Shown here: piece by piece, positions 12,753-55,603 of the stretch
Numbering within the stretch: the first letter of the stretch is position 1
Layout: the number at the start of each line of letters is the position of its first letter
Assembly: GCA_035461245.1 (NCBI GenBank)
Contig: DATHVP010000062.1
Location: 3,956-67,955 of the forward strand
Direction of reading: 5' to 3'
DNA length: 64,000 nucleotides
DNA from: Longimicrobiales bacterium
Lineage (GTDB): Bacteria; Gemmatimonadota; Gemmatimonadetes; Longimicrobiales; RSA9
Notes under the pieces: model-generated
The model's database searches: none
The model's input: the letters and a program-made list of their open reading frames with translations, nothing else
What the model was told of the DNA's origin: nothing
Program-made: the position numbers and the translations under genes

Positions 12753-12862
12753 TGTGGACAACAGGGGGTCAGTTATCAACACGCGATTGTCCAAGATTCC
12801 GACATGTGGGTTAAGTCGTTGCTATGAAACGCGTTTACGAGTTGCCTACAAAATGTGGACAA
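12753..12862. promoter_or_regulatory. Cluster of DnaA-box-like 9-mers in a locally AT-richer intergenic region
   Basis: TGTGGACAA at 12753-12761 and 12854-12862, both inside the identical 11-mer AATGTGGACAA. TTATCAACA at 12773-12781. Weaker TTGTCCAAG at 12787-12795 and TGTGGGTTA at 12805-12813. Confidence 0.45.
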
Positions 12863-15129: not shown

Positions 15130-15932
15130 GAACCCTCCTCCGCCGTGGCAGCCAGGGGTTCACCGGCCTGGGGCTGCCCGATGATTTCCCTGGCCAGGGT
15201 CAGGTAGCTCTGCGCGCCAGCGGACAGTACGTCATATAGCACGATGGGCTTGCCGAAGCTCGGTGCCTCGGCCAGACGCACATTCCGGGGAATGACGCTC
15301 TCGAAGACCCGGCTGCCGAAATACTCCTTGGCCTCGTCCGCCACCTGCCGGGAGAGGTTCAACCTCTGGTCATACATGGTGAGGAGCACGCCCTCGATCT
15401 GCAGCCGCGGGTTCAGATTCTGCTGAACCAGGCGCACCGTGTTCAGGAGTTGGGAAAGGCCTTCCAGCGCGTAGAACTCGCACTGAATCGGGATGAGCAC
15501 CGTGTCAGCAGCGGCCAGGGTGTTCAGGGTGAGCAGTCCCAGGGATGGCGGACAGTCCAGCAGAATGAACTCATACTCGTCCCGTACGGCCGTCAGGGCG
15601 TTCCGGAGGATGGTCTCCCGGCCTGGCCGGTCCACCAGCTCCACCTCCGCTCCCACCAGGTCCTGGCTGGAAGGCAGGATGTCCAGAAAGGGGAAATGGA
15701 CTTTCTCCACCCGCAGGTCTGCAACGGTGGCTTCCTCCACGAGCACGTCGTACACGGATCCCCTGAGGCCGGCCCGGTCCAGGCCCATGCCGCTGGTGGC
15801 GTTTCCCTGAGGGTCCATGTCCACGATGAGAGTCCTGCGCTCTGCTACAGCCAGGCCCGCACCGAGGTTGATGGCGGTGGTGGTCTTGCCCACACCGCCC
15901 TTCTGATTCGCTATGGCAATGACGCGGGACAT
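15126..15932 (-). CDS. parA: Chromosome partitioning ATPase ParA/Soj
   Basis: ORF 15126..15956. Start at ATG 15930-15932 after GGAGG (MSRVIAIANQKGGVGKTTT, deviant Walker A). There is a 4-nt overlap with parB. Confidence 0.9.
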   Translation of the reverse strand: MSRVIAIANQKGGVGKTTTAINLGAGLAVAERRTLIVDMDPQGNATSGMGLDRAGLRGSVYDVLVEEATVADLRVEKVHFPFLDILPSSQDLVGAEVELVDRPGRETILRNALTAVRDEYEFILLDCPPSLGLLTLNTLAAADTVLIPIQCEFYALEGLSQLLNTVRLVQQNLNPRLQIEGVLLTMYDQRLNLSRQVADEAKEYFGSRVFESVIPRNVRLAEAPSFGKPIVLYDVLSAGAQSYLTLAREIIGQPQAGEPLAATAEEGS

Positions 15933-16132
15933 TCGCCTCCACGGCCCGGAATGCATCGATTGGGGGCGGGAATATAACGCGAGACCTCCCCGTTGGGGAT
16001 ACCAGCTCCGGAATTTCTTGACGGAAGACCCTTTCTGGCGGGAAATTGGCCCTCCCGGGGATCCTCCCGGCGGTGCATCATGGGCAGGGGAGAGCAGACA
16101 TGGCAGAATCCGTGACGACGGGACGGGCCGGC

Positions 16133-16599: not shown

Positions 16600-16615
16600 T
16601 GTTTCACGTGAAACA
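16600..16615. other. parS centromere-like site (perfect consensus)
   Basis: TGTTTCACGTGAAACA, a perfect 16-bp palindrome identical to the widely conserved parS consensus. It lies 3 nt after the stop of the upstream lipoprotein gene. Confidence 0.9.
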
Positions 16616-16655: not shown

Positions 16656-16671
16656 TGTTCCACGTGAAACA
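16656..16671. other. parS centromere-like site (one mismatch)
   Basis: TGTTCCACGTGAAACA matches parS at 15 of 16 positions, 56 bp from the first site. Confidence 0.8.
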
Positions 16672-16682
16672 TACGGTGGCGT

Positions 16683-16964
16683 ATGAATGATAACACACGG
16701 GTGCGTATGGTCGTCAGTGGCCAGGTTCAGGGGGTCGGGTTCCGGGCGTTTATCCGCAGGCAGACCCGCGGGCTCCGCCTCGATGGCTACGTGCGCAACC
16801 TGGAGGACGGGACCGTGGAGATCGAGGCGGCGGGGCCGGCGGCGGATGTGGCCCGGCTGCGCGCGGTGGCGGCGAAGGGGCCACCGTGGGCCACCGTCTC
16901 CGGCGTAAGGGAGGTGGAGCCCGGCGACGGCAACCTGCCCAGCCCCTTTACCATTACTCGCTGA
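16683..16964 (+). CDS. acyP: Acylphosphatase
   Basis: ORF 16683..16964. Signature VSGQVQGVGFRAF...GYVRNLEDGTVE. Confidence 0.85.
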   Translation: MNDNTRVRMVVSGQVQGVGFRAFIRRQTRGLRLDGYVRNLEDGTVEIEAAGPAADVARLRAVAAKGPPWATVSGVREVEPGDGNLPSPFTITR

Positions 16965-16993: not shown

Positions 16994-17036
16994 CCAGCAG
17001 GGGCGCCGGGATGGAGAATCCCGGCGCCCCTGCTGG
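16994..17036. terminator. Hairpin between convergent acyP and yidC (bidirectional terminator candidate)
   Basis: CCAGCAGGGGCGCCGGGA, 7-nt loop, TCCCGGCGCCCCTGCTGG. Perfect 18-bp stem with no long U tract. Confidence 0.55.
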
Positions 17037-17056: not shown

Positions 17057-18802
17057 CTACGCTTCGGCCTTCGGGGCACCCTGTCTGGCCTGCTGGAAGC
17101 GCTTCCGTTCCCGTGAGATCTGGAGCTGCTGCGGGATGGACGCGAAGTTCATCGCGGCGTAGTACAGGTTCAGCCCTGATGCAAAGTTCAGGAAGATGAT
17201 GGTCATGACCGGTGGCATGGCATACATCATGAACTTCATCTGCGGATTCTGATCCGTCATGCTGCGCATGCTGAGCCACTGCATGAGGAACATGCTCACC
17301 CCGAGCAGCACCGGCAGGATATAGAACGGATCGGCCCTCGACAGGTCCGGCAGCCACAGGAACGGCACGCCGCGGAAGGCGATCGTGCTCTGCAGCACGA
17401 AGAACAGGGTGATGAGGATGGGCAGGGGAATGAGCATGGGCAGGCATCCGCCCATGGGGTTGAAGCCCTCCTCCTTGTACAGGCGCAGCAGTTCCTTCTG
17501 CAGCTTCTCCGGTTCGTTCTTGTACTTCGCCTGGATTTCCTTCATCCGCGGCTGGATCTCCATGTTCTTCATCTGCGAGCGCATGGCCTTGGCGTTCAGG
17601 GGCCAGAGGGCGATGCGGATGAGAACGCCGAACAGGACCAGCACCCAGCCATAGCCGATGCCCAGGTTGTCGTGCATCCAGTAGAGAGCGGCGGTGATGC
17701 CGTGCCCGAGGGGCTGGAGGAAGATGCGGAACGCGCGCCAGCCGAAGGGATTGACGTCGGAGAACTTCTGCCCCACCTCCGCCAGCCGGCGGGGCTCCTG
17801 GGGCCCGATATAGAAGCGGAACCCGAAGGTGCCATCGGGATCGGGCTGCAGCGTGACATACATGTCCGCGGCATTGGGCTCGCTCACCGGGTTGGCCACC
17901 AGCCCGCCAAAGGCCGTGGGCGATTCGGGGTGGGTCACGGCTGCGGCGACGAAGTACTTGTTCTTCACTGCGGCCCAGTGGAGGGGCCCGTTCTCCACGC
18001 GCTGGGCGCGGACGGAGTTCAGCCGGACCTTCGATACCCCGTCCCGGTCGGCATTCACGACGTACTCCAGCATCCGCTCGTCTTCCTGCGGGTTCGCCTC
18101 GTTCATGGCCAGGCGCCGGGGCAGGTTGATGAGCAGCGTGGGGGCCTGTCCTCCCAGACCCGTGACCACCATGCGGCCAGTGATGACGTAGCGATCGGGG
18201 TCGAAGGCGTAGGCTACGACAATGCCCAGGTCCTCCCCCTCGTGCCTGAGCTCCAGCGTCCCCGGCTGCCCCCCGGCAACGTCCACGACGCCCGATGCAC
18301 TCGGCAGGAAGTTCAGGTCATCCAGCGGGATCTCCCGCGTGCCCACACGGAGGCGGTAGGAGAACAGGCCCGGCACCGTGTCCCAGGACAGTTCCACGGG
18401 CTGTCCGTGACGAGCCGGGTCCAGCACGATATGCTGGTGCAGTTCAGCTCCAACGATGCCCGCCCCTGCCGTGCTGACACGATAGTCGTACAACGCCGTG
18501 CGGGCGACGATCGTATCCGCCGACACCCCTGCAGTGGCAGCGGGAGTCGTCAGCCCGGGCGTCGCGCCGGTGTCAACCGGCACCGCCGGTGCAGGGGCGG
18601 CCTGCCCTGCGTCCCCCGCAGCCATCGTATCCAGCACAGCCCCGGGGGGCTCGCCCGCGGGTACCGTCGCGGGACCTACCGCCGTCGTGTCCGGAGCCAT
18701 GGGATCCACCGGCGGCGGCTCGGGCGGCAGGAGCAGGTTTGTAACGACCATGACGGCGATCATCAGGACCACCGCCAGCAGAAAGCGTCCGCTGTCCATC
18801 AA
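17057..18802 (-). CDS. yidC: Membrane protein insertase YidC
   Basis: ORF 17057..18802. Large periplasmic domain, then the conserved C-terminal core (NPMGGCLPMLIPLPILITLF, GLNLYYAAMNFASIPQQ). Located in the conserved rnpA-yidD-yidC context. Confidence 0.9.
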   Translation of the reverse strand: MMDSGRFLLAVVLMIAVMVVTNLLLPPEPPPVDPMAPDTTAVGPATVPAGEPPGAVLDTMAAGDAGQAAPAPAVPVDTGATPGLTTPAATAGVSADTIVARTALYDYRVSTAGAGIVGAELHQHIVLDPARHGQPVELSWDTVPGLFSYRLRVGTREIPLDDLNFLPSASGVVDVAGGQPGTLELRHEGEDLGIVVAYAFDPDRYVITGRMVVTGLGGQAPTLLINLPRRLAMNEANPQEDERMLEYVVNADRDGVSKVRLNSVRAQRVENGPLHWAAVKNKYFVAAAVTHPESPTAFGGLVANPVSEPNAADMYVTLQPDPDGTFGFRFYIGPQEPRRLAEVGQKFSDVNPFGWRAFRIFLQPLGHGITAALYWMHDNLGIGYGWVLVLFGVLIRIALWPLNAKAMRSQMKNMEIQPRMKEIQAKYKNEPEKLQKELLRLYKEEGFNPMGGCLPMLIPLPILITLFFVLQSTIAFRGVPFLWLPDLSRADPFYILPVLLGVSMFLMQWLSMRSMTDQNPQMKFMMYAMPPVMTIIFLNFASGLNLYYAAMNFASIPQQLQISRERKRFQQARQGAPKAEA

Positions 18803-19562: not shown

Positions 19563-19599
19563 TCCCATATCGAGCACTCCATCGTTGGCAAAGATGTCA

Positions 19600-19629
19600 A
19601 TAATAGGGGGGGCAAGGGCATTTGGTCAA
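19600..19629 (-). promoter_or_regulatory. Candidate sigma70-type rpmH promoter
   Basis: The minus strand reads TTGACC (19629-19624), 18-nt spacer, TATTAT (19605-19600), about 37 nt upstream of the rpmH ATG. Confidence 0.55.
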
Positions 19630-19640
19630 CGGGGAGTTTC

Positions 19641-19683
19641 GGGATGGGGATCGTAAACGTTCAACGTAAACGGGATCGGGGAT
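19641..19683 (-). repeat. Copy B of the ACGTTTACGATCCCSATCCC element (points toward rpmH)
   Basis: Plus strand GGGATGGGGATCGTAAACGTTCAACGTAAACGGGATCGGGGAT. The 20-bp core at 19641-19660 is the exact reverse complement of 19735-19754. Confidence 0.8.
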
Positions 19684-19725
19684 ACCGCCGGTGGCACGAG
19701 GCGCCCGGGTTCTCGGCTATCCCGC

Positions 19726-19760
19726 GGAACGTTTACGTTTACGATCCCCATCCCGGATCC
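19726..19760 (+). repeat. Copy C of the ACGTTTACGATCCCSATCCC element (points toward dnaA)
   Basis: GGAACGTTTACGTTTACGATCCCCATCCCGGATCC, with the 20-bp core at 19735-19754. Confidence 0.8.
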
Positions 19761-19764
19761 GTCG

Positions 19765-19793
19765 TTGACTTATCCACAATCCTCGCCTAACGT
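19765..19793 (+). promoter_or_regulatory. Candidate sigma70-type dnaA promoter
   Basis: TTGACT (19765-19770), 17-nt spacer, TAACGT (19788-19793). An alternative is TTGACG (19802-19807), 17 nt, ATGCAT (19825-19830), which would give a near-leaderless mRNA. Confidence 0.45.
19770..19778 (+). promoter_or_regulatory. Perfect consensus DnaA box in the dnaA promoter
   Basis: TTATCCACA, exact match. It overlaps the -35/spacer of the candidate dnaA promoter, which is the classic autoregulation layout. Confidence 0.75.
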
Positions 19794-19832
19794 ACCTGCC
19801 CTTGACGCTGCAACCCTCCGGCGAATGCATAC

Positions 19833-21359
19833 ATGGAGCTGACAGCAGCGGAGGCCTGGTCGCGCATTCTCGAGCGAGCCAGGCCTTTGCTTCCTGAACA
19901 CACCTTCCGGATCTGGCTCGAGCACACGGAGCCGGTGGCCCTGTCACAGGACGAGCTCACCGTTGCGGCGGGTAGCGACTTCGCCGCGGAGTGGATCGAG
20001 GACAAGTACGGCGGTCTGCTGACGGAGGTGGCGGAGCGTGTGTTCGGCCGCGCCATAGCCCTGGGCTTCGAGAACCGGGACCAGGGCGGGCCCGGACCTG
20101 GAGCCGCTGGGGGAGCGGGTGGTCCGCACGATGGCCGCTCGGACGCCGACGCCTCGGGGGCCACAGCCTCAGCGCTGGGATCATCCACCGCCACGGCGGG
20201 CCCGGCGCGCGGCCAGGGATCGAGCGCCCCTTCGGTGGCGGGTTCTTCGATGTCGTCCCTCGCGGGCCACGGTGCCGGCAGCGGTACGCCGGCTCCACCG
20301 GCGTCTGCGCACCAGGGCCGGGGCGGCGTGGTGCTGGGCTCACCGCTGAATGAGCGGTACACGTTTGAACGGTTCGTCGTAGGCGCGAACAACCAGTTGT
20401 CGAACGCGGCGTGCCGGGCCGTGGCGGAAGCGCCTGCACGCATGTACAACCCGCTGTTCATCTATGGGGGTGTCGGTCTCGGCAAGACGCACCTGATGCA
20501 CGCAATCGGCCACGTGCTGCTGGGCCGGGATGCCCACAAGCGGGTGGCGTACGTATCCAGCGAGCGCTTCACGAACGACCTCATCGCGTCCATCCAGGAA
20601 GGCCGGATGGCCGAGTTCCGCCGTCGCTACCGTGACATTGACCTGCTGCTCATTGACGACGTGCACTTCCTGGGCGAGAAGGAGCGTACGCAGGAGGAGT
20701 TCTTCCATACATTCAACGCCCTGCACGACGCGCAGCGTCAGATCGTCATGACGAGCGATCGTCCCCCGAAGGAGATCCCGGGCCTGGAGGAGCGGCTTGT
20801 CTCGCGTTTCGAGTGGGGACTGGTCACCGACATCAAGCCGCCGGACCTGGAGACGCGAGTGGCAATCCTCAGGAAGAAAGCGGAGGACGACCGCATCTCG
20901 CTGGGGGACGAAGTGCTGGACTATATTGCCCGGAACTGCCGGTCGAACGTCCGGGAGCTCGAGGGCGCGGTCATCAAGCTGCTGGCGTACTCGTCCCTCA
21001 CGCGCCGTGAGGTTGACCTCGACCTGGCCCGCGAGGCGCTGGGCGGTGTGCTGGGCGCCGGAGCGGCGGTTGAAGTCACGGCGGACCTGATCCGGTCCCG
21101 TGTGGCGGAAGAGTGGGGTGTGTCGGTGGACGGGTTGACGTCGAAGCGCCGCACCAAGGAGTTGTCGGTGCCGCGCCAGGTCGCCATGTATCTCATGCGC
21201 GAGCTGCTGGACCTCTCGCTGGTGGAGATCGGCAGGCATTTCGGCGGGCGGGATCACTCCACCGTGATTCACGCAGTGAACAAGGTCGAGGAGGATCTGC
21301 GCACCGAGGACGCATTCCGCACGCGCGTGGAACTGTTGCGCGATGGCATGCGCGGGTGA
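19833..21359 (+). CDS. dnaA: Chromosomal replication initiator protein DnaA
   Basis: ORF 19833..21359. AAA+ Walker A (GGVGLGKTHL), box VII, and a C-terminal DNA-binding domain (RQVAMYLMRELLDLSLVEIGRHFGGRDHSTVIHA). Domain II linker is long and Gly/Ala/Ser-rich. Confidence 0.95.
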   Translation: MELTAAEAWSRILERARPLLPEHTFRIWLEHTEPVALSQDELTVAAGSDFAAEWIEDKYGGLLTEVAERVFGRAIALGFENRDQGGPGPGAAGGAGGPHDGRSDADASGATASALGSSTATAGPARGQGSSAPSVAGSSMSSLAGHGAGSGTPAPPASAHQGRGGVVLGSPLNERYTFERFVVGANNQLSNAACRAVAEAPARMYNPLFIYGGVGLGKTHLMHAIGHVLLGRDAHKRVAYVSSERFTNDLIASIQEGRMAEFRRRYRDIDLLLIDDVHFLGEKERTQEEFFHTFNALHDAQRQIVMTSDRPPKEIPGLEERLVSRFEWGLVTDIKPPDLETRVAILRKKAEDDRISLGDEVLDYIARNCRSNVRELEGAVIKLLAYSSLTRREVDLDLAREALGGVLGAGAAVEVTADLIRSRVAEEWGVSVDGLTSKRRTKELSVPRQVAMYLMRELLDLSLVEIGRHFGGRDHSTVIHAVNKVEEDLRTEDAFRTRVELLRDGMRG

Positions 21360-21695
21360 ATCATCAGCGCGCCCGGCTCGTTCTGTCCGGCCTGAGAAGG
21401 CCGGTTCCGGGCGCGGCGGGGGGTGCGGATAACATGTGGACAGGGTGTGCGTCGTTGCCGGTTGATCCACAGAACGGCCGGGGCTGTGGAGAACAGCGGA
21501 GTTCTCCACGGGCCGTCCACAACGTGTCAACAGCGGGCATGCAGCGAGGATGTGTTGCGGCAGCGGGGATTCAGGTGCGAACGGACGCGTCGTCCACAAA
21601 CCCACAGTCCCTACTGTTACTGCTGGATATAGATATTAATAAAGAGAAGTCTCCTTTGCTGTGGAATACAGACAGCGCACTCAGGTGAGGGCTTC
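21360..21695. other. Chromosomal replication origin (oriC) in the dnaA-dnaN spacer
   Basis: Eight 9-mers match TTATCCACA or TTGTCCACA at 7-8 of 9 positions. Forward orientation: 21463-21471, 21502-21510, 21513-21521, 21590-21598. Reverse orientation: 21424-21432, 21435-21443, 21485-21493, 21660-21668. An AT-rich element follows at 21626-21650. Confidence 0.75.
21626..21650. other. AT-rich DNA unwinding element candidate of oriC
   Basis: GATATAGATATTAATAAAGAGAAGT has 20 of 25 positions A/T in an otherwise strongly GC-rich window. It is flanked by DnaA-box-like sites at 21590-21598 and 21660-21668. Confidence 0.65.
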
Positions 21696-22808
21696 ATGAA
21701 ACTGAAGATCACGCGGGACAACCTGCAGCAGGGCCTGGCCGCCGTCGCTGCAAGCATCCCGACGCGGACAACGCTGCCGGTCCTTTCCAACATCCTCATC
21801 GATGTGGGCGAGGACAGCATTGCCATGTCCGGTACGGACCTGGACATCGCCGTCAGCGTAACGGTTCCGGCGGAGGTGGAGGAGGGTGGTTCGCTGACGG
21901 TGCCGGCGAAGAAGCTGCAGGAGCTGGCCCGTGAGCTGCCCGAGCATCCGGTGCGCATCAGCACCAGGGGTGATCGGCTGGAGCTGGCATGCGGTCGTGC
22001 CAACTTCCGGTTGAACGGGATGCCCCGGGACGAGTTCCCCACCTTCCCTGCGGTGGACTTCGAGCAGTCGTGGAAGGTCCAGGGCCGGCTGCTCCAGGAT
22101 CTCATCCGGCAGACGTCGTTCGCCGTGTCCACGGAGGAGAGCCGTCCCATCCTAAACGGCGTGCTCTGGCAGCTCGGCGAGGACGAGATGCGCATGGTGG
22201 CCACGAACGGTCACCGCCTGGCGCGTATCCGGGTGTCGAGCGTGGCGGCGGGCGCGCCACGGGCCGACCTCATCGTGCCGCCGAAGGCGCTGGCGCAGGT
22301 AGAGCGGTTGTTCAGCGGCGATGACGAGATCGAGGTCGCCCGCAGCGAGAACCACATCGGTTTTCGCAAGGACGGCACCCAGGTCTTCACCCGTCTCATC
22401 GAGGGCCCGTACCCGAACTACGAGCAGGTCATCCCGAAGGACAACGACAAGCACGCCATCGCCGATCGCAACCAGCTCATCCACGTGCTCCGTCGCATGG
22501 CCGTCGTTGCCAGTGACCAGACGCACCGGGTTCGTCTCGGGTTCACGTCCAACACGGTGCGCTTCTCGGTGGAGACGCCGGACCTGGGCGAGGCCCACGA
22601 GGACCTGGAGGTCGAATACAGCGGCGAGGCGCTGGACATCGGCTTCAACGCCAGCTACCTGCTTGAGGTCCTGCGCTACATGCCCAGCGACGAGGTGAAG
22701 CTGACGTTCAAGGCACCGGAGCGGGCGGCTACCATCGAGCCGGCGAATGCGGCCGAGGACGCACCCGACTACCTCTGCCTGGTCATGCCGCTGCGCCTGC
22801 TGGATTGA
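21696..22808 (+). CDS. dnaN: DNA polymerase III beta sliding clamp
   Basis: ORF 21696..22808. Typical DnaN N-terminus (MKLKITRDNLQQGL...LPVLSNILI) and C-terminal MPLRL. Confidence 0.95.
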   Translation: MKLKITRDNLQQGLAAVAASIPTRTTLPVLSNILIDVGEDSIAMSGTDLDIAVSVTVPAEVEEGGSLTVPAKKLQELARELPEHPVRISTRGDRLELACGRANFRLNGMPRDEFPTFPAVDFEQSWKVQGRLLQDLIRQTSFAVSTEESRPILNGVLWQLGEDEMRMVATNGHRLARIRVSSVAAGAPRADLIVPPKALAQVERLFSGDDEIEVARSENHIGFRKDGTQVFTRLIEGPYPNYEQVIPKDNDKHAIADRNQLIHVLRRMAVVASDQTHRVRLGFTSNTVRFSVETPDLGEAHEDLEVEYSGEALDIGFNASYLLEVLRYMPSDEVKLTFKAPERAATIEPANAAEDAPDYLCLVMPLRLLD

Positions 22809-27503: not shown

Positions 27504-27673
27504 GCCAGTGACGCTGGCAAGGGGAGTGCCACGTTGCACAACCTGTTTTGCCCGCCCTGGGTGACAGCGGCGCTGCATGGCAGCGGCACGGGAGTCGCAT
27601 CAGATTGCTGAACGCTGTTCCGACGCCGCGCGCCCGCCGGGTCGGCCAACATCACCTCAGAGGAACCCGAGTC

Positions 27674-28054
27674 ATGTCGCCTGTACAGCGCCCGCTCTCC
27701 GAGCCCATGATGTCGTTCGACCTCCAGCCCACGCTGAGAACCCTCAGGGACGACGAGTCCTATCGTCGCTCCGGTCGGCTCGGCCGTACGCTGGCCCGCT
27801 CAGGTCGGCTGAGGATGGTGCTCGTCGCATTGAACGCCGGTGTCGAGGTAGGCACGCACCAGGCGGACAGCCCCATGACCATCCAGGTCCTGGAAGGCAG
27901 GATCGGCTTCCGCGTAGCCGGGGAGAACCACGAACTGAGCGCCGGCCAGGTTCTCTTCTTCGGCCCCGGCGAGGCCCATGACATCCGGGCGCTGGACGAA
28001 TGTGCCCTCCTCCTGACCCTGTCAGCCATCGGAGACGACGCAACGAACGCCTGA
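27674..28054 (+). CDS. Cupin domain protein
   Basis: ORF 27548..28054, start at the in-frame ATG 27674. The cupin-like region GVEVGTHQADSPMTIQVLEGRIGF...LSAGQVLFFGPGEAHDIRA supports the call. Confidence 0.6.
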   Translation: MSPVQRPLSEPMMSFDLQPTLRTLRDDESYRRSGRLGRTLARSGRLRMVLVALNAGVEVGTHQADSPMTIQVLEGRIGFRVAGENHELSAGQVLFFGPGEAHDIRALDECALLLTLSAIGDDATNA

Positions 28055-35793: not shown

Positions 35794-36013
35794 CGGCGGC
35801 GCCCCGCCCGGGTTTCTGGCCCGCTGTTCCCCGAAGGCAGGGGCAGGCCCGCCGCGCGCGGTTCCGCAGGGAGGAGGCACCGCGCAGCGGCCCGACGACC
35901 GAGGACTGTCCGAGCACGGCGGCCCTGCCCCTGCCAATTCTTGACGGGCATGATAAAATCAGGGCTGACCCGAATCACGGAACTCAGCCGCAGGCCGCAG
36001 GAACAGACCCCCG

Positions 36014-40369: not shown

Positions 40370-42727
40370 TCAGCGACCGCCCTGGTTCGCGGCGCTGGCC
40401 GCTGCCGGGCGCGGGTCCTGCAGCGTTTCCAGCACCTGCCGCCACTGGAACTTCTCGCCGATGCCCCGGACGTAGTAGTCCATCCATGCCATCTCGCTCA
40501 TGGACTTGACCAGCCGGTTGCGCGGGTCGGGGATGCCGTGGCTGTTGCCCGGATACATGAACAGTTCCGTCTCCACGCCGAGCTGCCGCAGCGCCATGTG
40601 CAGCTCCACTGACTGGGGGCTCGGCACGCGCGGGTCGCCCTCGACGACGTGGATCATGGTGGGCGTCTTCGCGTTGGCTATGTACTTCAGTGGCGACTGG
40701 TCCCAGTACGCATCGAAGTTGTGGTACGGCAGGTCGTCGCCCAGGTAGAACTGGCGGTTCCGCTGCACGTCGCTCTGGGCATACATGCTGATCCAGTTGG
40801 ACGTGCCGGCGCCTGAGCTGATGGCCTTGAACCGGTCCGTGTTCACCAGGATCCAGTTGGACCAGTGCCCGCCTGCGCTCCAGCCCAGTGCGCCCATGCG
40901 GTTGCCATCGACCAGGCCCTCGGCGATGAGGTGGTCCACGCCGGTCATGATGTCGTCATAGCCCTGCGGGAAGTAGTTGCCGACGATGTCCGTGCGGAAC
41001 GCCTCGCCGTAGTTGGTGGAGCCGCGGTAGTTCGGCTTCAGCACCGCGTAGCCGGCGCCTGCGTAGACCTGCGAGCCGTAGCCGCCGTTGAAGCCGAGGA
41101 CGTCGGCGGAGGCGGGTCCGCCGTGGATGGCGACAATGAGCGGATAGCGCTGACCGGGCTGGTAGCCCACGGGGTACGTCAGCACGCCACCGACTTCCTT
41201 CCCGTCGGTGGACGTCCAGGTGATCTCCTCCTGGGCGCCCAGCGCGAAGTTGCGGACCTGCGGGTTCACGTCGGTGAGCTGCCGCCAGGTGGAGCGGTTG
41301 CCGATGCGGTTCAGGTCCCGGGTGACGAAGAGCGTGGACGGCGTCGTCGGGTCCTGGTAGCTGATGAGGTAGAGGCCGCTGGCGTCGTCACGGCTGACGG
41401 ACAGCGACGCCTGCGCGTCCGTCACCTGGCGCACCGTGTTGCGCTGGACGTCCCGCGCCATGAGCTGCCGCGTGGCGCGGATGCCCTCGTTGAAGTAGAT
41501 GGTGCGGCCGTCGTCGGACCAGAAACCGACGGACAGGTTGCCATCGAATGAGCCGCCCAGCATGCGGAACTCGCCGCCACGCTGGTCCACGGGACGCAGC
41601 CAGATGCGACGGTTGCCCATGGTGTAGCGCGTCAGGTCCTCGGGCGCGACGAAGGCCACGGTCCGGCTGTCCGGTGAGAAGAACGGCCCGCTCTCGCCGA
41701 CCTCGTCGTTCTCGGTGAGCCGCTCGAGGCTACCGGTGGCGACTTCCAGCAGGTAGAGGTCGGCGTTGATGTTCTGCTCGGTGATGTTGCGGTGGTAACG
41801 GTGCGAGCTGACGCCGTTGAAGCCGATCCAGCGGCCGTCAGGGGAAACGTTGAAGCTTGTGACGTCGTACGCGGTGTCATCCGTAAGTCGCGTGGTCCGG
41901 GACGGGTCCAGGTCCAGCGCCCACAGGCTGCTCAACGGCGTGACCTCATTGTAGACGTTGACGGTGAAGCGGTTCTCGCGGCGGAGCCGCTCGTCCTCAA
42001 ACAGCGTGTCACGCGTCAGGAAGTAGATGCGACGGCTGTCCGGCGCCCATTCCCAGCTGCCAACTCCCGTGCCATGGCGGCTGACCTGTTCGGCCTCCGG
42101 TGCCGTGGTGCCGGTCCCGATGGCAGTACCGTTCAGCAGCGCCGTGAGGGCGTGCACAGGCACGCGGTAGAGTTGCTCCTGGTTGCTGCGCCCGCTGCGG
42201 TAGACGAGCCAGCGGCCGTCGGGGCTGAACGCGAAGTTGGAGACGCCCGCCGTCGCATCCGTCACACGCCGGGCCTCACCGCCGTCCGTTCGCATCAGGT
42301 AGAGCTGGTTCTGGTTCGCGCTGCTCGATGGCGCGTCACGGTTCGACAGGAAGACGAAGGCGCTGCCGTCGGGCAGCCACGCGGGCTGCGACTCGTTCTT
42401 CTCCGCCGTGAACGTGAGCTGGCGCGACGACGGCACCCCCTGCTCCGTCGACACGATAAAGAGGTCCGTCTGGCTGCGGGCTTCCTTCCAGTCAGGAAAG
42501 CTCACCGTGTGGAGCACGTGCCGGCCGTCGGGCGAGACGTTGAAGCTGCCCGCCGAGCGCATGTGCTGCACGTCCAGGAACGTCATGGGCCGGACGGCCT
42601 CTTCGGCTATCGCCTGGCCGGCGGGTGCCTGGGCAAGGACGGGCTGGGACGCTGGTGCGGCGGCACCGGTGGCGATGGCGGCAAGCATCAGCGTGCGCCG
42701 CCGCAGGCGCGGGAGAACTCTCTGCAT
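40370..42727 (-). CDS. Secreted S9-family serine peptidase (PD40 propeller plus prolyl oligopeptidase/DPP-type catalytic domain)
   Basis: ORF 40370..42955. Start at ATG 42725-42727 gives the signal MQRVLPRLRRRTLMLAAIATGAAAPA... The catalytic block GWSAGGHW is the Ser nucleophile motif GxSxGG. Confidence 0.85.
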   Translation of the reverse strand: MQRVLPRLRRRTLMLAAIATGAAAPASQPVLAQAPAGQAIAEEAVRPMTFLDVQHMRSAGSFNVSPDGRHVLHTVSFPDWKEARSQTDLFIVSTEQGVPSSRQLTFTAEKNESQPAWLPDGSAFVFLSNRDAPSSSANQNQLYLMRTDGGEARRVTDATAGVSNFAFSPDGRWLVYRSGRSNQEQLYRVPVHALTALLNGTAIGTGTTAPEAEQVSRHGTGVGSWEWAPDSRRIYFLTRDTLFEDERLRRENRFTVNVYNEVTPLSSLWALDLDPSRTTRLTDDTAYDVTSFNVSPDGRWIGFNGVSSHRYHRNITEQNINADLYLLEVATGSLERLTENDEVGESGPFFSPDSRTVAFVAPEDLTRYTMGNRRIWLRPVDQRGGEFRMLGGSFDGNLSVGFWSDDGRTIYFNEGIRATRQLMARDVQRNTVRQVTDAQASLSVSRDDASGLYLISYQDPTTPSTLFVTRDLNRIGNRSTWRQLTDVNPQVRNFALGAQEEITWTSTDGKEVGGVLTYPVGYQPGQRYPLIVAIHGGPASADVLGFNGGYGSQVYAGAGYAVLKPNYRGSTNYGEAFRTDIVGNYFPQGYDDIMTGVDHLIAEGLVDGNRMGALGWSAGGHWSNWILVNTDRFKAISSGAGTSNWISMYAQSDVQRNRQFYLGDDLPYHNFDAYWDQSPLKYIANAKTPTMIHVVEGDPRVPSPQSVELHMALRQLGVETELFMYPGNSHGIPDPRNRLVKSMSEMAWMDYYVRGIGEKFQWRQVLETLQDPRPAAASAANQGGR

Positions 42728-42873
42728 GGAGGCCTCGAGGTGGCGGTGACGTGTTGGGCTACAAGGTACGACATGGGCCGGGCGACGAACAACGGGCGCC
42801 GGCCGATGGGTTCGACAAATCACTGCCTGCGAGACGATGGCCGGCGTCTGCTGCACCGATGGCAGCGGAACCG

Positions 42874-42891
42874 ACTGCCGCAGAGTCGACA
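42874..42891 (+). repeat. Third copy of the 18-mer arm
   Basis: ACTGCCGCAGAGTCGACA matches 42957-42974 at 17 of 18 positions. Confidence 0.85.
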
Positions 42892-42956
42892 ATCCAGGCG
42901 GCCGGTCACGTAGTCTGTCGACACAGCAGCAGGAGCGGGTGGAGTTATGCTGCAAT

Positions 42957-43016
42957 ACTGCCGCAGAATCGACAAACCAGCTGGAATCGCCTGCAGAATG
43001 TCGATTCTGCGGCAGT
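42957..43016. repeat. Perfect 18-bp inverted repeat with 24-nt spacer
   Basis: ACTGCCGCAGAATCGACA (42957-42974) and TGTCGATTCTGCGGCAGT (42999-43016) are exact reverse complements. Confidence 0.9.
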
Positions 43017-43131
43017 GGTGGCTGGCGCGGGGGAGCCTCCCGGCCAGGAGCGTGCGCACAGCCGATGTACTCGCGGGCCGGGCGTCAGCCACATGCCACC
43101 AGCTCCGGGGCGGTGCTGCGCTGACGAGGGG

Positions 43132-43145
43132 GGATCCGCGGATCC
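43132..43145. repeat. 14-bp perfect palindrome
   Basis: GGATCCGCGGATCC. Confidence 0.8.
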
Positions 43146-43210
43146 GCGCCCGGCGCTCTTTCGAAAACCGCCGCCACCTGCTATTTCTCCCCTGTTCCCC
43201 GACAAACGGG

Positions 43211-43299
43211 CCGAGCCCGCATCGTCCGAGTCCGGATCATCCGAGCCGTGTCGTTCGAGCCCGCGTCCTGCGAGTCCGCACCAGCCGAGTCTGCACATG
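43211..43299 (+). repeat. Six-unit degenerate tandem array with 15-bp period, abutting the DUF305 start codon
   Basis: CGAGYC starts at 43212, 43227, 43242, 43256, 43271 and 43286, giving spacings of 15, 15, 14, 15 and 15 nt. ATG is at 43297. Confidence 0.8.
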
Positions 43300-43947
43300 A
43301 GAACACGCATCCTTGTCGCGCTGCTGGCAGCGCCGCTCCTGACATTGTCCGCGTGTGCCACCGCCGGCAGCGGTGGCGCAGGTTCCGCCGACCCGCCGCT
43401 GCTGGGCGCCGGGGCCATCCCCGCTCCGCGGCCGTACTCGCAGGCGGATGTGCACTTCATGGCCGGCATGATCCCGCATCACGCGCAGGCAGTGAAGATG
43501 GCGGCACTGGTCCCGGACCGGAGCAGTCGTGAAGACGTGAAGATCCTGGCGGAACGCATGGCCGTGGCGCAGGGCGACGAGATCGCCCTCATCCGCCAGT
43601 GGCTTGCCGACAACAACGAGGATGTGCCGCCAGCGGACGCGACGCACCATGTCATGGATCACGGCGGCATGCAGCACGCCATGCTCATGCCCGGCATGCT
43701 GACCGATGAGGAGATGGCGCAGCTCGAGGCGGCCCGCGGCGCGGCGTTCGACCGCATGTTCCTGACGCTCATGATCCGGCACCATGAGGGCGCCATCATC
43801 ATGGTCAATGACCTGTTCGGCGCCGCCGGCGCCGCGCAGGACGATTTCATCTACAAGTTCGCATCCGACGTCTTCGCCGATCAGACCACGGAGATTCATC
43901 ACATGCAGCAGATCCTCGCCCAACTTCCGGAACGGAGCCAGCCATGA
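43297..43947 (+). CDS. DUF305 family lipoprotein (four-helix-bundle, His-rich)
   Basis: ORF 42625..43947. Start at the in-frame ATG 43297 gives the lipobox signal MRTRILVALLAAPLLTLSAC. DUF305 signatures: FMAGMIPHHAQAV, MIRHHEGAI, EIHHMQ. Confidence 0.8.
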   Translation: MRTRILVALLAAPLLTLSACATAGSGGAGSADPPLLGAGAIPAPRPYSQADVHFMAGMIPHHAQAVKMAALVPDRSSREDVKILAERMAVAQGDEIALIRQWLADNNEDVPPADATHHVMDHGGMQHAMLMPGMLTDEEMAQLEAARGAAFDRMFLTLMIRHHEGAIIMVNDLFGAAGAAQDDFIYKFASDVFADQTTEIHHMQQILAQLPERSQP

Positions 43948-45761
43948 GTGACAGCCAGTCGCAGCAGCAGCGTCGAACTTCCCGGCGCAGGAACATCGCG
44001 GTCCTCGCCGTCCTCCCCCTGCTGGCGTCGGCGTGCGCCACGGCTGGCGGCACCGGCGCCACGGCCGGCGGAGCGGTGCCTGCCGGGCCGGCCGTGGACA
44101 TGTCCACGACGGCGCCGAGCCCCGATCCCCGCGTGGGCCTGCGGGCCGGTGTCACTGACGCCGGCACAGCTGCATGGAACATGCGCCTCGTAGCGAACCG
44201 ACCGTCGCCGGAGGGTTTCGCCGGCGCCACGAACTCGGACCTGGCCTTCAGCGGCGACCTGGTCTACCAGGGCAACTATAACGGCTTCATGGTCTGGGAC
44301 GCGGCGAACCCGCGTGACCCACGGCTGAAGGTCCGCTACATCTGCCCCGCCTCGCAGAGCGACGTCTCCGTCTACCGCAACCTGCTCTTCGTCTCGGGCG
44401 AGGGTCAGTCCGGCCGCCTGGACTGCGGCGCGCAGGGCGTGCAGGACTCGGTCAGCCATGACCGGCTGCGGGGCATTCGCATCTTCGATGTGACGGACAT
44501 CGAGAACCCGCGCTACATCCACAACGTGCAGACGTGCCGCGGCTCGCACACGCACACGGTTGTGGAGGACCCGCGGGACCCGAACAATGTCTACATCTAC
44601 GTGTCCGGCTCCGCTGGTGTCCGTTCGCCCAGTGAGCTGCCGGGCTGCTCGCGGCTGGCGCCGGACGAGGACCCCAACTCCGCGCTGTTCCGCATCGAGG
44701 TCATCCGCGTGCCGCTGGCGAACCCGGCCCAGGCGGCCATCGTGACGCAGCCCAGGATCTTCGAGGGACTGGCGTCGCCGCCCCGGCGTGACGCCGACGG
44801 CAACCCCGTCGTCAACCCGGACCGCCCCGGCCCCAGCCAGTGCCACGACATCACGGTCTATCCCGCGGTTGGCCTGGCGGGCGGCGCATGCGGCGGCTAC
44901 GGCCTGCTGCTGGACATCAGTGACGTGGTGAACCCGCGCCGCCTGGACGCTGCGGCGGACCACAACATGTCCTTCTGGCACTCGGCCACGTTCAGCAACG
45001 ATGGCAGTGCGGTCCTGTTCACCGACGAGTGGGGCGGCGGCAGCGCGCCCCGCTGCCGGGAGACGGACCGCTACGAGTGGGGCGCCAACGCGCTGTTCAC
45101 CATCGAGAACGGCAGGCTCGTGTTCCAGTCGTACTACAAGATGCCGGCGGCGCAGACGGAGCAGGAGAACTGCGTGGCGCACAACGGCTCGCCCATTCCC
45201 ATCCCGGGCCGCGAGATCAAGGTCCAGGCCTGGTACCAGGGCGGGCTGTCCATCTTTGACTGGACGGACCCCGCCAACCCGGTGGAGATCGCGTACTGGG
45301 ACCGCGGCCCCATGAGCGACGAGCGTCTCATCAGCGCCGGCTCGTGGTCGTCGTACTGGTACAATGGCTACATCTACAGCTCCGAGATCGCCCGCGGCCT
45401 GGACGTCTACGAGATCCAGCCCAGCGGCTTCATCTCGCAGAACGAGATCGACGCGGTGAAGACCGTGATCTGGCCGGAGTACAACCCGCAGATGCAGATC
45501 CGGATGGAGTGGCCGCCGTCGTTCCCGCTGGCCCGGGCGTACATTGACCAGCTCGAGCGCAGTAGCGGCCTGTCGGCGCAGCGCATCGCGTCGGCCCGGA
45601 CGGAGCTGCAGCGCATCGAGCGGATGAGCGCATCACAGCGGGTTGCGCCGTTGCAGGCGCTGGCGACGTCACTGCAGCAGGACGTGGCCGGTTCCCGCGA
45701 CGCCGGCAAGGTCCGGCTGCTGGTGGGCGCGGTGAACGACCTGGCGGCTGCGCAACGGTAA
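43944..45761 (+). CDS. LVIVD-repeat-like beta-propeller lipoprotein
   Basis: ORF 43944..45761. ATGA overlap with the DUF305 stop. Lipobox LLASAC. Repeated propeller-blade segments (NLLFVSGEG, VYIYVSGS, GYIYSSE). Family call made from memory. Confidence 0.65.
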   Translation: MSDSQSQQQRRTSRRRNIAVLAVLPLLASACATAGGTGATAGGAVPAGPAVDMSTTAPSPDPRVGLRAGVTDAGTAAWNMRLVANRPSPEGFAGATNSDLAFSGDLVYQGNYNGFMVWDAANPRDPRLKVRYICPASQSDVSVYRNLLFVSGEGQSGRLDCGAQGVQDSVSHDRLRGIRIFDVTDIENPRYIHNVQTCRGSHTHTVVEDPRDPNNVYIYVSGSAGVRSPSELPGCSRLAPDEDPNSALFRIEVIRVPLANPAQAAIVTQPRIFEGLASPPRRDADGNPVVNPDRPGPSQCHDITVYPAVGLAGGACGGYGLLLDISDVVNPRRLDAAADHNMSFWHSATFSNDGSAVLFTDEWGGGSAPRCRETDRYEWGANALFTIENGRLVFQSYYKMPAAQTEQENCVAHNGSPIPIPGREIKVQAWYQGGLSIFDWTDPANPVEIAYWDRGPMSDERLISAGSWSSYWYNGYIYSSEIARGLDVYEIQPSGFISQNEIDAVKTVIWPEYNPQMQIRMEWPPSFPLARAYIDQLERSSGLSAQRIASARTELQRIERMSASQRVAPLQALATSLQQDVAGSRDAGKVRLLVGAVNDLAAAQR

Positions 45762-53386: not shown

Positions 53387-55308
53387 ATCCGCCCACAGCC
53401 ACAGCCAAGGCCCGGTCCAACCCCGCCGCGCCTCCGGACCGGATGGGCGCCATTGATGAGGCCGCACTGGCGCTGGCTGGTATGGCGGGCCCCCGGCCTG
53501 ATGCGGGCGAGCTGGAGCACGTGCGTGCGTTGCTGGAGCCCCGCGCCCGGGACGACGACCAGCCGGCATGGGTCAGGCAGGCGCTGGCTGCCGCTGTCGA
53601 ACTGCTCGACGGAGCCCTCGACGGTGCCGGTGACCCGGCCTGCTCCATCTCCCGGGTCAATGCCCTCCTCGACCTGACGCGCTCAGCCGCCCCGCATGCT
53701 GCGGGAGACGTTCCCGCCGGGATGGCCCTGCCCGACGACACCATCCGCGAACTGGTCCCGGAGTTCCTGGCCGAGTCGGCCGAGCACCTGGACCATGTGG
53801 AGGCCATACTCCTACGTACGGGGGCTGCACGCGTCGAGCCTGCCGACCTGGAAGACATCTTTCGCGCGTTTCACACCATCAAGGGGTCGGCCTCCTTCCT
53901 GGGCGCCGCCGGTGTTGCCGAACTGGCTCACGCCGGAGAGTCCCTCCTGGACCGGCTGCGGGGCGCGACTGACATTGTCGGTCCGGCCTCCACGGCGCCG
54001 GTCATGGAGTGTGTGGACGTCCTGCGCCGGTTGCTGGACGACTTCGCCTATTCATCCGCCGGCGCGTCGTCCCCGGCATCCGCCAGCGCGTCGTCCCCGG
54101 CATCCGCCAGCGCCGCGCACCCGCCGCCTTCCCGGGCAGCCACCGCCGCGCCACCAGCGACAGTACGAGTGCGTACGGACCGGCTGGATGAGCTGGTTGA
54201 GCTGGTGGGGGAACTGGTGGTGGCCCACGCCATGGTGGGCGGGGACGCCCTGGTCCACCGCCATCGTCATGATGAATTGGGTCGCAACGTCGCGCGCACC
54301 GGGAAGATCGTGCGACAGCTTCAGGATCTGGCGTCCGCGCTGCGCATGGTACCGCTTCGCCCCCTGTTCCAGCGTATGGAAAGACTGGCCCGTGATCTGG
54401 GCTCAGAAACGGGCAAGCCGGTGGAGTTCGTGTCGACGGGTGCGGACACGGAAATTGATCGCACCATGGTGGACCTGTTGGCCGATCCGCTGGTGCACAT
54501 GATCCGCAATGCCATGGACCATGGGGTGGAGCAGGCGGAGGCACGGGCCGCAGCGGGCAAACCCGTGAAGGCCCGGATCTGCCTGTCCGCGTGGCATTCC
54601 GGCGGAGACGTCATGGTGGAGCTGGCGGACGACGGGCGCGGCCTGGACCTGCGGGGCATCCGCGCCCGTGCGGAGGCGTATGGGCGGGTGTTGCCCGACC
54701 AGCCGATGACGGCCGAAGAGGTAGCGGGCCTGATCTTCGAGAGTGGGCTGAGCACCTCGGACACCGTCACCACGCTGTCGGGCCGAGGGGTGGGGATGGA
54801 CGTTGTGCGGCGGAACATCGAGGCGCTGCGGGGGCGCATCGACGTCCGGTCCGAGGACGGTGCCGGCACCACCTTCCGGATCCGGCTTCCCCTCACGCTG
54901 GCGGTGACCGACGGCATGCTGGTGCGGGTGGGGGCAGAGCGATACGTCATCCCGTCGTCGGACATCCGGACGTGCTGCCGACCGGAGACGGATGCCTATA
55001 CCCGTGTGGCTGGAAGCGGCGAACTGGTGACGTGGCATGGATCGACCTTCCCGGTGATTCGCCTGCACGCGCTGTTCGATGTTTCCGGAGCGGTTTCCGA
55101 TCCTGCAGGCGGCGTCCTGGTGGTGGTGAGCGACGGTGTGCGGGCGTGTGCCCTGCTGGTAGATGAGGTGCTGGGGCAGCACCAGTTCGTGGCCCGTCCC
55201 GTGGCGCCGGGCCTGGGTGCCGTACCCGGCGTGAGCGGCACCGCCATACTGGGCGATGGCGCGGTGGGCCTCATCCTGGACGCTGCCGGCCTGCTGGCCG
55301 CTCGCTGA
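53383..55308 (+). CDS. cheA: Chemotaxis histidine kinase CheA
   Basis: ORF 53371..55308 (GTG). ATG 53383 overlaps the cheB stop as ATGA. Hpt motif FRAFHTIKGSASFLG, dimerisation and HATPase domains (DHGVE..., DDGRGLD, GRGVGMDVV) and a C-terminal CheW-like domain. There is an N-terminal extension of about 120 aa before Hpt. Confidence 0.9.
   Translation: MNPPTATAKARSNPAAPPDRMGAIDEAALALAGMAGPRPDAGELEHVRALLEPRARDDDQPAWVRQALAAAVELLDGALDGAGDPACSISRVNALLDLTRSAAPHAAGDVPAGMALPDDTIRELVPEFLAESAEHLDHVEAILLRTGAARVEPADLEDIFRAFHTIKGSASFLGAAGVAELAHAGESLLDRLRGATDIVGPASTAPVMECVDVLRRLLDDFAYSSAGASSPASASASSPASASAAHPPPSRAATAAPPATVRVRTDRLDELVELVGELVVAHAMVGGDALVHRHRHDELGRNVARTGKIVRQLQDLASALRMVPLRPLFQRMERLARDLGSETGKPVEFVSTGADTEIDRTMVDLLADPLVHMIRNAMDHGVEQAEARAAAGKPVKARICLSAWHSGGDVMVELADDGRGLDLRGIRARAEAYGRVLPDQPMTAEEVAGLIFESGLSTSDTVTTLSGRGVGMDVVRRNIEALRGRIDVRSEDGAGTTFRIRLPLTLAVTDGMLVRVGAERYVIPSSDIRTCCRPETDAYTRVAGSGELVTWHGSTFPVIRLHALFDVSGAVSDPAGGVLVVVSDGVRACALLVDEVLGQHQFVARPVAPGLGAVPGVSGTAILGDGAVGLILDAAGLLAAR
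54064..54111 (+). repeat. Perfect in-frame 24-bp tandem duplication inside cheA
   Basis: GCGTCGTCCCCGGCATCCGCCAGC x2, encoding ASSPASAS twice in the linker after the Hpt domain. Confidence 0.9.
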
Positions 55309-55375
55309 CCTCCGCCGGCCTGGCCGCCGGCTGACCTCCGCCGGCCGGATGGCCGCTGGCTGACCTCCGCGGGCT
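55295..55375 (+). repeat. Three tandem degenerate copies of the cheA 3' end, including its stop codon
   Basis: TGGCCGCTCGCTGACCTCCGCCGGCC starts at 55295, TGGCCGCCGGCTGACCTCCGCCGGCC at 55321, and TGGCCGCTGGCTGACCTCCGCGGGC at 55350. TGA occurs at 55306, 55332 and 55361. Confidence 0.85.
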
Positions 55376-55603
55376 GGTGGCGCCGACGCGGGGGAGGCCG
55401 GGCGGCGACGGCCCTCCGCTGGTGAGGCTCCGCTATTGTTGCCGTCCCGCCCGACCTTCGCCTGCAGAGTACCGTCCGAGTGTCAATCGACTGTCAAAGC
55501 CAGCGCGTCGGGCCCCATCCGGAAACTCTCGCACGACTTCTGCACCTGTTCTATATTCGCCCGCCGCCTGCCATGGTGGCGACCACCGAATCGGGAGATA
55601 GCC

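Follow-up and report, generated by a model that had tools for sequence, protein, structure and literature searches.

What an 18-bp perfect inverted repeat, accompanied by a further copy of the same sequence, is doing between two divergent genes of a Longimicrobiales bacterium (Gemmatimonadota) is the question raised by this locus. The repeats lie in a 64-kb stretch of DNA, the whole of which was analyzed and is hereafter called the window. A previous reading of its letters, hereafter the sequence-only reading, had offered three answers: a multi-operator region, a structured RNA leader or small RNA, or a decayed miniature inverted-repeat element. We conclude that the structure is real, non-random and lineage-specific. 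The repeats are confined to a stretch of about 330 bp that is unique to this lineage and lies between two conserved, putative promoters, so that they are most likely ordinary, young palindromic repeat DNA.

The gap between the S9 peptidase and DUF305 genes

The intergenic gap spans 569 bp (42728-43296), between the S9 peptidase start at 42727 and the divergent DUF305 start at 43297. Both start codons are backed by alignment to relatives, in which that of the S9 gene is kept, and the gap length given in the sequence-only reading is thereby borne out. On the left flank and on the minus strand, the S9 family peptidase gene (40370-42727) encodes a protein of 785 aa with a signal peptide and the Pfam domains PD40 and Peptidase_S9; an identical NCBI protein is annotated as an S9 family peptidase of a Longimicrobiales bacterium. 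The right flank (43297-45761, plus strand) was assigned from Pfam and homologues to a DUF305 lipoprotein gene (43297-43947) and a gene for an LVIVD-repeat lipoprotein (43944-45761, 605 aa), which overlap by 4 nt. This pair is conserved across the whole of the Gemmatimonadota and consists of putative periplasmic copper-handling genes. A Longimicrobiales (Gemmatimonadota) MAG at NCBI encodes flanking proteins identical to those of the window.

The gap had been described as free of real protein genes and as the largest non-coding stretch of the window. The first description is confirmed: third-position GC is flat over the gap (0.83-0.91 in the neighbouring genes), and none of the five ORFs running through it has a Pfam match. 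These two results, together with an empty tblastn search in which the genes found at this junction in relatives (cupin, kinase, PP2C, nucleotidyltransferase and others) were compared with the gap, rule out a coding or pseudogene remnant. The second description is probably right, since two larger apparent gaps in a crude gene call proved to be coding (Peptidase_M28 and PNP_UDP_1). No tRNA or tmRNA was found in the region. An assembly artefact is unlikely, because an ENA contig (ERZ27272640, k141_619645) and a Logan contig (SRR9691058), from samples that are possibly not independent of each other, give an identical gap. The cupin orthologue is intact in the window at 27675-28050. The block running from the cupin gene to Rho (27.6-40.3 kb) is inverted relative to the related locus L141. 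A breakpoint of this inversion within the gap was considered and dropped, as the breakpoints lie 3' of the S9 gene and to the left of the cupin gene, and no repeat joins the two ends.

About 100 related loci were gathered through genome-context look-ups and a metagenome scan. The divergent S9/DUF305 arrangement is shared by L141 and L142, with an amino acid identity of 82% for the S9 peptidase and 73% for the LVIVD protein, and their gap of just 171 bp consists only of two promoter-like blocks. The same two blocks flank the gap of the window. Between them lies a lineage-specific non-coding segment of about 333 bp (42792-43124, with boundaries approximate to about 15 bp), which is absent from the 171-bp gap and contains every copy of the 18-mer. 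No counterpart of this segment was found among the roughly 100 related loci. For the covariation analysis proposed in the sequence-only reading these loci offered no material, none of their homologous gaps carrying the insert.

The block on the S9 side, which includes the S9 leader (42728-42791, minus strand), is shared with relatives in alignments. It contains CGAGGCCTCCATG (SD-like sequence and start), a -10-like TACCTT (the reverse complement of 42763-42768) and a weak -35 position at 42786-42791; in relatives, the corresponding block reads CTCGACC-N17-TAACTT followed by CGAGGCCTCCATG. The block on the DUF305-LVIVD side (43158-43187, plus strand) consists of CTTTCG (43158-43163), a 17-nt spacer and TATTTC (43182-43187). 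CTTTCG is invariant across four lineages and is followed after 17-18 nt by TATCNG or TATTTC, a motif that is limited to the closest relatives (L141, L142, L145 and L136). From their conservation and spacing, the two blocks look like back-to-back sigma-70-type promoters, and TCGACC-N17-TAACTT and CTTTCG-N17-TATCNG emerge from the comparison as candidate core promoters of two genes conserved in Longimicrobiales. Measured from the two -35 positions, the 18-mer copies are located upstream by at least 82 bp on the S9 side and by 142 bp on the DUF305 side, and the leaders of relatives measure only about 30-45 nt.

The region upstream of the DUF305-LVIVD pair varies between relatives. The S9 peptidase gene is found there in L141, L142 and the window, a cupin gene in L138-L140 (gap of about 200 bp), hut genes in L136 (about 100 bp), and a 3-kb kinase-PP2C-nucleotidyltransferase cassette in L145. 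Judged from these gene orders, the S9/DUF305 junction turns out to be a site of recurrent insertion and rearrangement in the clade.

Two tandem inverted doublets

The sequence ACTGCCGCAGAATCGACA is found at 42957-42974 (plus strand) and, after an interval of 24 nt, recurs as its exact reverse complement at 42999-43016; a direct copy with one mismatch (17/18) lies at 42874-42891. All three positions agree with those first reported, and exactly three matches to ACTGCCGCAGAATCGACA with up to three mismatches exist in the 64 kb. None of 100 dinucleotide shuffles contained three such matches. When the window was simulated 60 times under a Markov-1 model, perfect inverted repeats with loops of at most 200 nt attained a maximum length of 11-16 nt per simulation, never 18. 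The inverted repeat is genuine, and chance falls far short of explaining it.

A fourth, decayed arm was found at 42916-42932. It is 82% complementary (14/17) to 42875-42891, again across a 24-nt spacer, and the four arms therefore form two tandem hairpin-type units with an 83-bp period, an organization that, like the fourth arm, had no place in the sequence-only reading. Unit A (42874-42932, plus strand) is the older, decayed doublet, with the left arm ACTGCCGCAGAGTCGACA (42874-42891), the 24-nt spacer and the right arm TGTCGACACAGCAGCAG (42916-42932); its DNA fold has a z of -0.94. Unit B (42957-43016, plus strand) is intact, with ACTGCCGCAGAATCGACA as its left arm, a 24-nt spacer and the right arm TGTCGATTCTGCGGCAGT (42999-43016). 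The arms of unit B are complementary at 18/18 positions, its spacer contributes about 5 extra pairs to the stem, and its DNA fold reaches -25.1 kcal/mol (z = -7.85). The motif GGAATCG in this spacer resembles the -10 region of a kinase promoter in L144, L145 and L147, a similarity that we judged to be a post-hoc 7-mer match.

Taken together, units A and B form a tandem composite of 143 bp (42874-43016), the outer arms of which make up a 21-nt inverted repeat at 90% that encloses 101 nt (42874-42894 / 42996-43016). The arms start at 42874, 42916, 42957 and 42999, with spacings of 42, 41 and 42 nt. When the two units were compared at an offset of 83, the left arms plus 6 nt were identical at 22 of 24 positions and the right arms, with about 11 nt of flank, at about 69%, whereas the identity of the spacer centre was at the random level. 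Identity among the three well-preserved arms extends to 53 of 54 positions; at position 12 of the left arm, unit A has G where unit B has A, and the right arms carry the matching C and T. Such near-identical arms beside an unrelated spacer point to recent copying of the arms or to constraint on their sequence, and do not fit the duplication of a whole unit followed by drift. The internal quasi-palindrome of each arm is very short (CTGC-C-GCAG, plus TCGA). No direct repeat that could be a target-site duplication was found at 42874/43016 or 42957/43016, the flanks being GGAACCG and GGTGGCT for the 143-bp element and TGCAAT and GGTGGCT for the 60-bp element.

Five TCGACA cores had also been counted in the gap. 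Their enrichment holds, with six occurrences of TCGACA/TGTCGA against about 0.25 expected from the window rate, but the count and one member of the set had to be revised: a second opposite-strand core lies at 42916-42921, within the palindrome TGTCGACA, and the core at 42812 is not significant alone (6% of random windows score equally).

The remaining repeats of the gap were delimited with TRF. The 14-bp palindrome GGATCCGCGGATCC is present at 43132-43145 as claimed and results from the 8-mer GGATCCGC having been duplicated in tandem (43132-43148, 2.1 copies); it is missing from the gaps of the relatives compared. A 15-nt tandem array (43211-43295, plus strand, 5.7 copies, consensus CCGAGTCCGCATCAT) fills the DUF305 leader up to the ATG and has the highest copy number among the tandem arrays of the window. 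In L141, the sequence amplified here is present as a single copy (CCGCATCATACCGAGCATG; CCGCATCAT-A-CCGAG-C-ATG), and the array has an unremarkable fold (z = +0.6); the DUF305 leader is longer in the window than in relatives. With these two other duplication products (the 8-mer in two copies and the 15-mer in 5.7), local copying therefore does happen in this gap.

A possible REPIN/BIME-like repeat cluster

Conserved inverted arms, a self-pairing but non-conserved spacer, tandem units, graded decay, an extragenic location and the lack of a target-site duplication lead us to favour a young, lineage-specific REPIN/BIME-like palindromic repeat cluster, inserted between the two promoters. We hold this reading tentatively, as a serious possibility that falls somewhat short of being probable. 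A conserved 18-nt sequence would be present as inverted doublets able to fold into a hairpin in single-stranded DNA, and two such doublets would stand in tandem, one intact and one decaying. They may have arisen by copy-and-paste through a hairpin-recognising transposase encoded elsewhere (RAYT or IS200-IS605 type), without target-site duplication, or, alternatively, by local re-duplication of such a hairpin element. The cluster would then have no dedicated function at the locus, and its chief effect would presumably have been to push the S9 and DUF305-LVIVD promoters about 330 bp apart.

The missing target-site duplication is expected under HUH-type hairpin transposition, as IS605-type transposition leaves none. 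Published REPINs (Bertels & Rainey, PMC3337134) consist of conserved inverted REPs, with spacers that differ in sequence yet keep the hairpin. In the same work, inter-REP distances include 41-43 bp, tandem arrays are the commonest clustered arrangement of REPINs, older copies decay, and the mechanism is likened to IS605-type transposition. The present locus resembles REPINs and BIMEs in having two conserved copies in the 16-20-nt range, inverted and forming a near-perfect hairpin (here arms of 18/18 and a 24-nt spacer), in a spacer that is unconserved in sequence and partly self-pairing, and in an extragenic tandem array with a decayed older unit and no target-site duplication. The start-to-start spacing of 42 nt between arms also falls in the 41-43 class of REPINs, if the published distance was measured likewise.

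The likeness has limits. Unlike REPIN families, which comprise tens to hundreds of copies, the repeat is known here from a single locus, and no RAYT gene is present among the genes of the window. The arm palindrome is minimal (CTGC-C-GCAG and TCGA) and far weaker than the stems of typical REPs. Multiplicity, the defining property of REPs, REPINs and MITEs, is not observed in the data searched. In addition, the arms follow each other at 42, 41 and 42 nt and the units at 83 nt, distances near whole helical turns that would also suit a protein-binding array. To our knowledge, REPINs have not been described in Gemmatimonadota.

The exact 18-mer, with A or G allowed at position 12, gave 53 single matches in 185,579 species genomes that do not include the host MAG; these were in unrelated taxa and none was in Gemmatimonadota. 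By our own arithmetic, about 35 matches are expected by chance (2 strands x 2 variants x 5.96e11 bases / 4^18), and the 53 observed are roughly of that order of magnitude. The host genome lies outside this collection, since its three-copy locus did not turn up. The 18-mer had no match in viral contigs, and plasmid and phage collections held no similarity to the insert. When the gap was compared by BLASTN with related loci totalling about 640 kb, no match was significant; motif scans that tolerated mismatches, run over these loci and the window, gave no further copy; and nhmmer searches with unit B, the 143-nt composite or the whole insert recovered only the known copies in about 700 kb of window and related loci. 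The genome-wide search for the 18-mer advised in the sequence-only reading thus brought a partial answer, with no additional copy at up to three mismatches in the 64-kb window and a near-chance number of matches in the genome collection. From zero further copies in 63 kb, we estimate that the family has at most roughly 190 loci per 4 Mb, the genome size being assumed.

Genes for mobility or regulation were likewise looked for in the window. None of the genes called there was recognised as a RAYT or other transposase, a recombinase or a transcription factor; the DNA-binding proteins that turned up are ParB and DnaA, which are present because the window includes the chromosomal origin region. 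The identity of the 18-mer with parS or with DnaA boxes was rejected, as the canonical sites lie elsewhere (parS at 16600 and 16656; DnaA boxes at about 12.8, 19.8 and 21.4 kb) and bear no resemblance to it.

Of the three original proposals, the decayed miniature inverted-repeat element comes closest to the favoured reading, in that a repeat element is preferred, although not a classical MITE. Compared with Correia elements of Neisseria and ERIC sequences, the 143-bp composite is similar in its terminal inverted repeats of 18-21 nt, its intergenic and non-coding nature, its presence or absence between related lineages and its proximity to promoters. Terminal inverted repeats of MITE type are indeed present, with 21 nt at 90% around 143 bp and 18 nt at 100% around 60 bp. 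Unlike MITEs, the composite carries internal copies of the terminal repeat and has no target-site duplication, and neither further copies nor a cognate transposase were found in the data searched. The lack of a target-site duplication and of a second locus is the reason why a REPIN/BIME type is preferred over a classical MITE. If the REPIN/BIME-like reading is true, the locus adds one more palindromic intergenic repeat family and possibly the first REPIN-like element in Gemmatimonadota.

Local origin, regulation, RNA and inversion

A purely local origin, with no mobile element involved, is a rather unlikely but substantial alternative. Slippage would have produced an 83-bp tandem duplication of a quasi-palindrome, and unit B would owe its perfect pairing to a later template switch or gene conversion, in which its left arm served as template for the right; the whole would be neutral filler in an expanded gap. 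Several observations are consistent with this scenario: the 18-mer is a singleton locus in all data searched, no target-site duplication is seen, and the 569-bp gap contains two further slippage products (GGATCCGC x 2.1 and the 15-mer x 5.7). Template switching would also yield automatically the sole apparent compensatory change, at arm position 12. More generally, a perfect inverted repeat beside an imperfect sister copy, with other tandem duplications nearby, is what quasipalindrome template-switch and slippage products look like. The difficulty lies in the pattern of divergence. Plain duplication and neutral drift predict equal divergence of arms and spacer, while the arms agree at 22/24 positions and the spacer centre is random, and a local origin therefore needs at least two extra conversion events. 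Unlike known products of this kind, the locus shows arm similarity far above that of the spacer, and the scenario offers no source for the additional ~333 bp that L141, with its 171-bp gap, does not have.

The same conservation of arms but not spacer could also reflect an array of operators or upstream sites, in which an unlinked DNA-binding protein would occupy four 18-bp sites, arranged as two inverted pairs on one helix face, and would co-regulate the divergent S9 and DUF305-LVIVD promoters, for instance through looping or by blocking weak promoter-like sites in the units. We consider this doubtful. Its appeal comes from the placement between divergent promoters and from the periodicity, as arm starts 42/41/42 nt apart and units 83 nt apart correspond to roughly four and eight helical turns; repeated, helically phased sites between divergent genes recall the looping operator arrays of AraC/DeoR type. 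The TCGACA core matches 5/6 of the -35 consensus, and a relaxed scan placed a -10-like hexamer 19 nt downstream of it in both units (TCGACA-N19-(TAGTCT/CAGAAT)). Regulated expression of the neighbouring genes is also plausible, since DUF305-type proteins such as CopM are described as copper-responsive in other bacteria (PMC4335983).

The comparison with relatives weighs against such an array. The sites are missing from relatives that keep the gene pair, and no 18-mer-like motif was found upstream of DUF305 or S9 at about 100 loci. No transcription factor gene is adjacent or in the window, except for ParB and DnaA with their own sites elsewhere, and the motif is found nowhere else in the 64 kb. 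Unlike AraC/DeoR-type arrays, the locus has no linked regulator, sites that are unconserved in orthologous gaps, and sites that are near-identical instead of degenerate; an identity of 53/54 over three sites resembles recent copying and not a degenerate binding motif under long-term selection. Half-sites with a centre-to-centre distance of 42 bp, as here, are atypical of dimeric operators, and one of the four sites is decayed. The standard sigma-70 scan of the region was empty, and inspection by eye revealed no convincing sigma-54 or ECF promoter motif in the insert. The multi-operator proposal is thus weakened by relatives that have the same gene pair and lack the repeat segment (missing conservation being among the grounds for refutation named in the sequence-only reading), by the lack of a regulator nearby and by the position of the repeats upstream of the promoter blocks.

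A more specific version, in which the four phased 18-bp sites are a recently recruited regulatory module (repeat-derived operators or a looping/switching element) acting on the S9 and DUF305-LVIVD genes, strikes us as improbable. If it were true, selfish palindromic repeats would have been caught in the act of co-option as cis-regulatory DNA, in a phylum for which we know of no characterised operator.

A structured RNA is less credible still, and we rate it as very unlikely. Unit B or the 143-nt composite would be transcribed, either on its own as a small RNA or within a long leader. The 18-bp stem would serve there as a stability or switching element, together with the two alternative pairings of the unit B right arm, which can join only one of the left arms at a time. 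The predicted folds are very stable: 181-nt RNAs from the two strands reached -87 and -85 kcal/mol (z = -4.2 and -5.5). In the minimum-energy fold, the 42874 arm pairs with the 42999 arm, and an alternative uses the 42957 arm instead. Strong folding scores of this kind are, however, what any inverted DNA repeat yields. No Rfam family reached the gathering score in the window (best local matches, E ~1). Neither the standard sigma-70 promoter nor an intrinsic terminator was detected in the region, and on both strands the stem lacks a trailing U-tract. Relative to each of the two conserved promoter-like blocks, the element is situated upstream; the leaders of relatives measure only about 30-45 nt, and no homologous sequence was found for covariation. 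The RNA proposal of the sequence-only reading consequently loses ground, the segment being unconserved, unmatched in Rfam, devoid of promoter or terminator and upstream of the promoter blocks. For annotation, a long perfect stem should not be labelled an RNA gene or an operator from sequence alone.

An inverton, in which a recombinase encoded elsewhere would target the 21-nt outer inverted repeat and flip the 101-nt core between the divergent genes, appears extremely improbable: repeat length, segment size and position between divergent genes resemble known invertible promoters such as those of Bacteroides and the fimS system, but no recombinase gene is present in the 64 kb, two assemblies show one orientation at 100% identity, and the internal arms make the core nearly symmetric, so that inversion would change little.

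Junction between the S9 peptidase and DUF305 genes

In several relatives, the gene divergent from the S9 peptidase gene belongs to a Ser/Thr kinase-PP2C phosphatase pair, found in the related loci L145 (1363-4380), L144 (1031-2479) and L147 (209-1595). In L145, this pair sits at the junction that holds the repeat insert in the window, and is followed by a nucleotidyltransferase gene and a 56-aa gene. A promoter-like block of the pair, TTGAC(A/T)-N17/18-AATC(C/G)T, is kept in all three loci.

On the DUF305 side of the window, the whole leader as far as the ATG is taken up by a 15-nt tandem array (43211-43295; unit CCGAGTCCGCATCAT, 5.7 copies, 73% matches), whose copy number exceeds that of all other tandem arrays in the window. 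The array yields six Shine-Dalgarno-like CCGAG motifs spaced 14-15 nt apart, and no special fold was predicted for it (z = +0.6). The amplified sequence occurs once in the relative L141.

Gene order and the cupin upstream box

Compared with L141, the 27.6-40.3 kb block of the window, running from cupin to a Rho-like gene, is inverted. It comprises the cupin, DinB/IMS, metallophosphatase, TonB receptor, OMP, AhpC, gcvP and Rho-like genes, and no repeats marking either end of the block were found. Upstream of the cupin gene lies a box, GCGGCACGGGAGTCGCAT (27585-27602), that is conserved between the window and the related locus L140, with the variant GCGGCACGGGAGTGGCGT in a further relative, L138. 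The L138 and L140 boxes are located in cupin-DUF305 gaps. The box moved along with cupin during the gene-order change, and is a candidate promoter or operator element of this gene.

Chromosomal origin region

The chromosomal origin region is contained in the window at 12.7-21.7 kb, where the genes for bactofilin, an M23 peptidase, parB (14218-15129), parA (15126-15956), yidC, rpmH, dnaA (19833-21359) and dnaN (21696-22808) are found. Two canonical parS sites are present, one perfect (16600-16615) and one with 1 mismatch (16656-16671). Clusters of DnaA-box-like sequences at 12753-12862 and, in the dnaA-dnaN gap, at 21424-21493 are likely oriC candidates.

The rpmH-dnaA gap (19566-19832) carries the longest perfect inverted repeat of the window, the 21-nt CGGGATGGGGATCGTAAACGT (19640-19660 and 19735-19755, 74-nt spacer), with partial copies also present internally and a perfect DnaA box, TTATCCACA, after it at 19770. 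This repeat and the 18-mer of the S9/DUF305 gap represent different sequence families.

Other repeats and hairpins

Between the convergent acylphosphatase (16683-16964, + strand) and yidC (17057-18802, - strand) genes, an inverted repeat whose 19-nt arms match perfectly across a 5-nt loop (16994-17036) is probably a bidirectional terminator hairpin lacking a T-tract. Another inverted repeat (26 nt, 88%; GGCAGGGGCAGGCCCGCCGCGCGCGG and its partner, 35836-35935, 48-nt spacer) occupies part of the gap that precedes gcvP (36014); neither a glycine riboswitch nor any other Rfam family was detected across the whole window. Tandem repeats were also found within cheA (54053-54113; 24 nt x 2.5, 97% matches) and at its end and just beyond, before the MetOD1-domain gene (55285-55381; 29 nt x 3.5).
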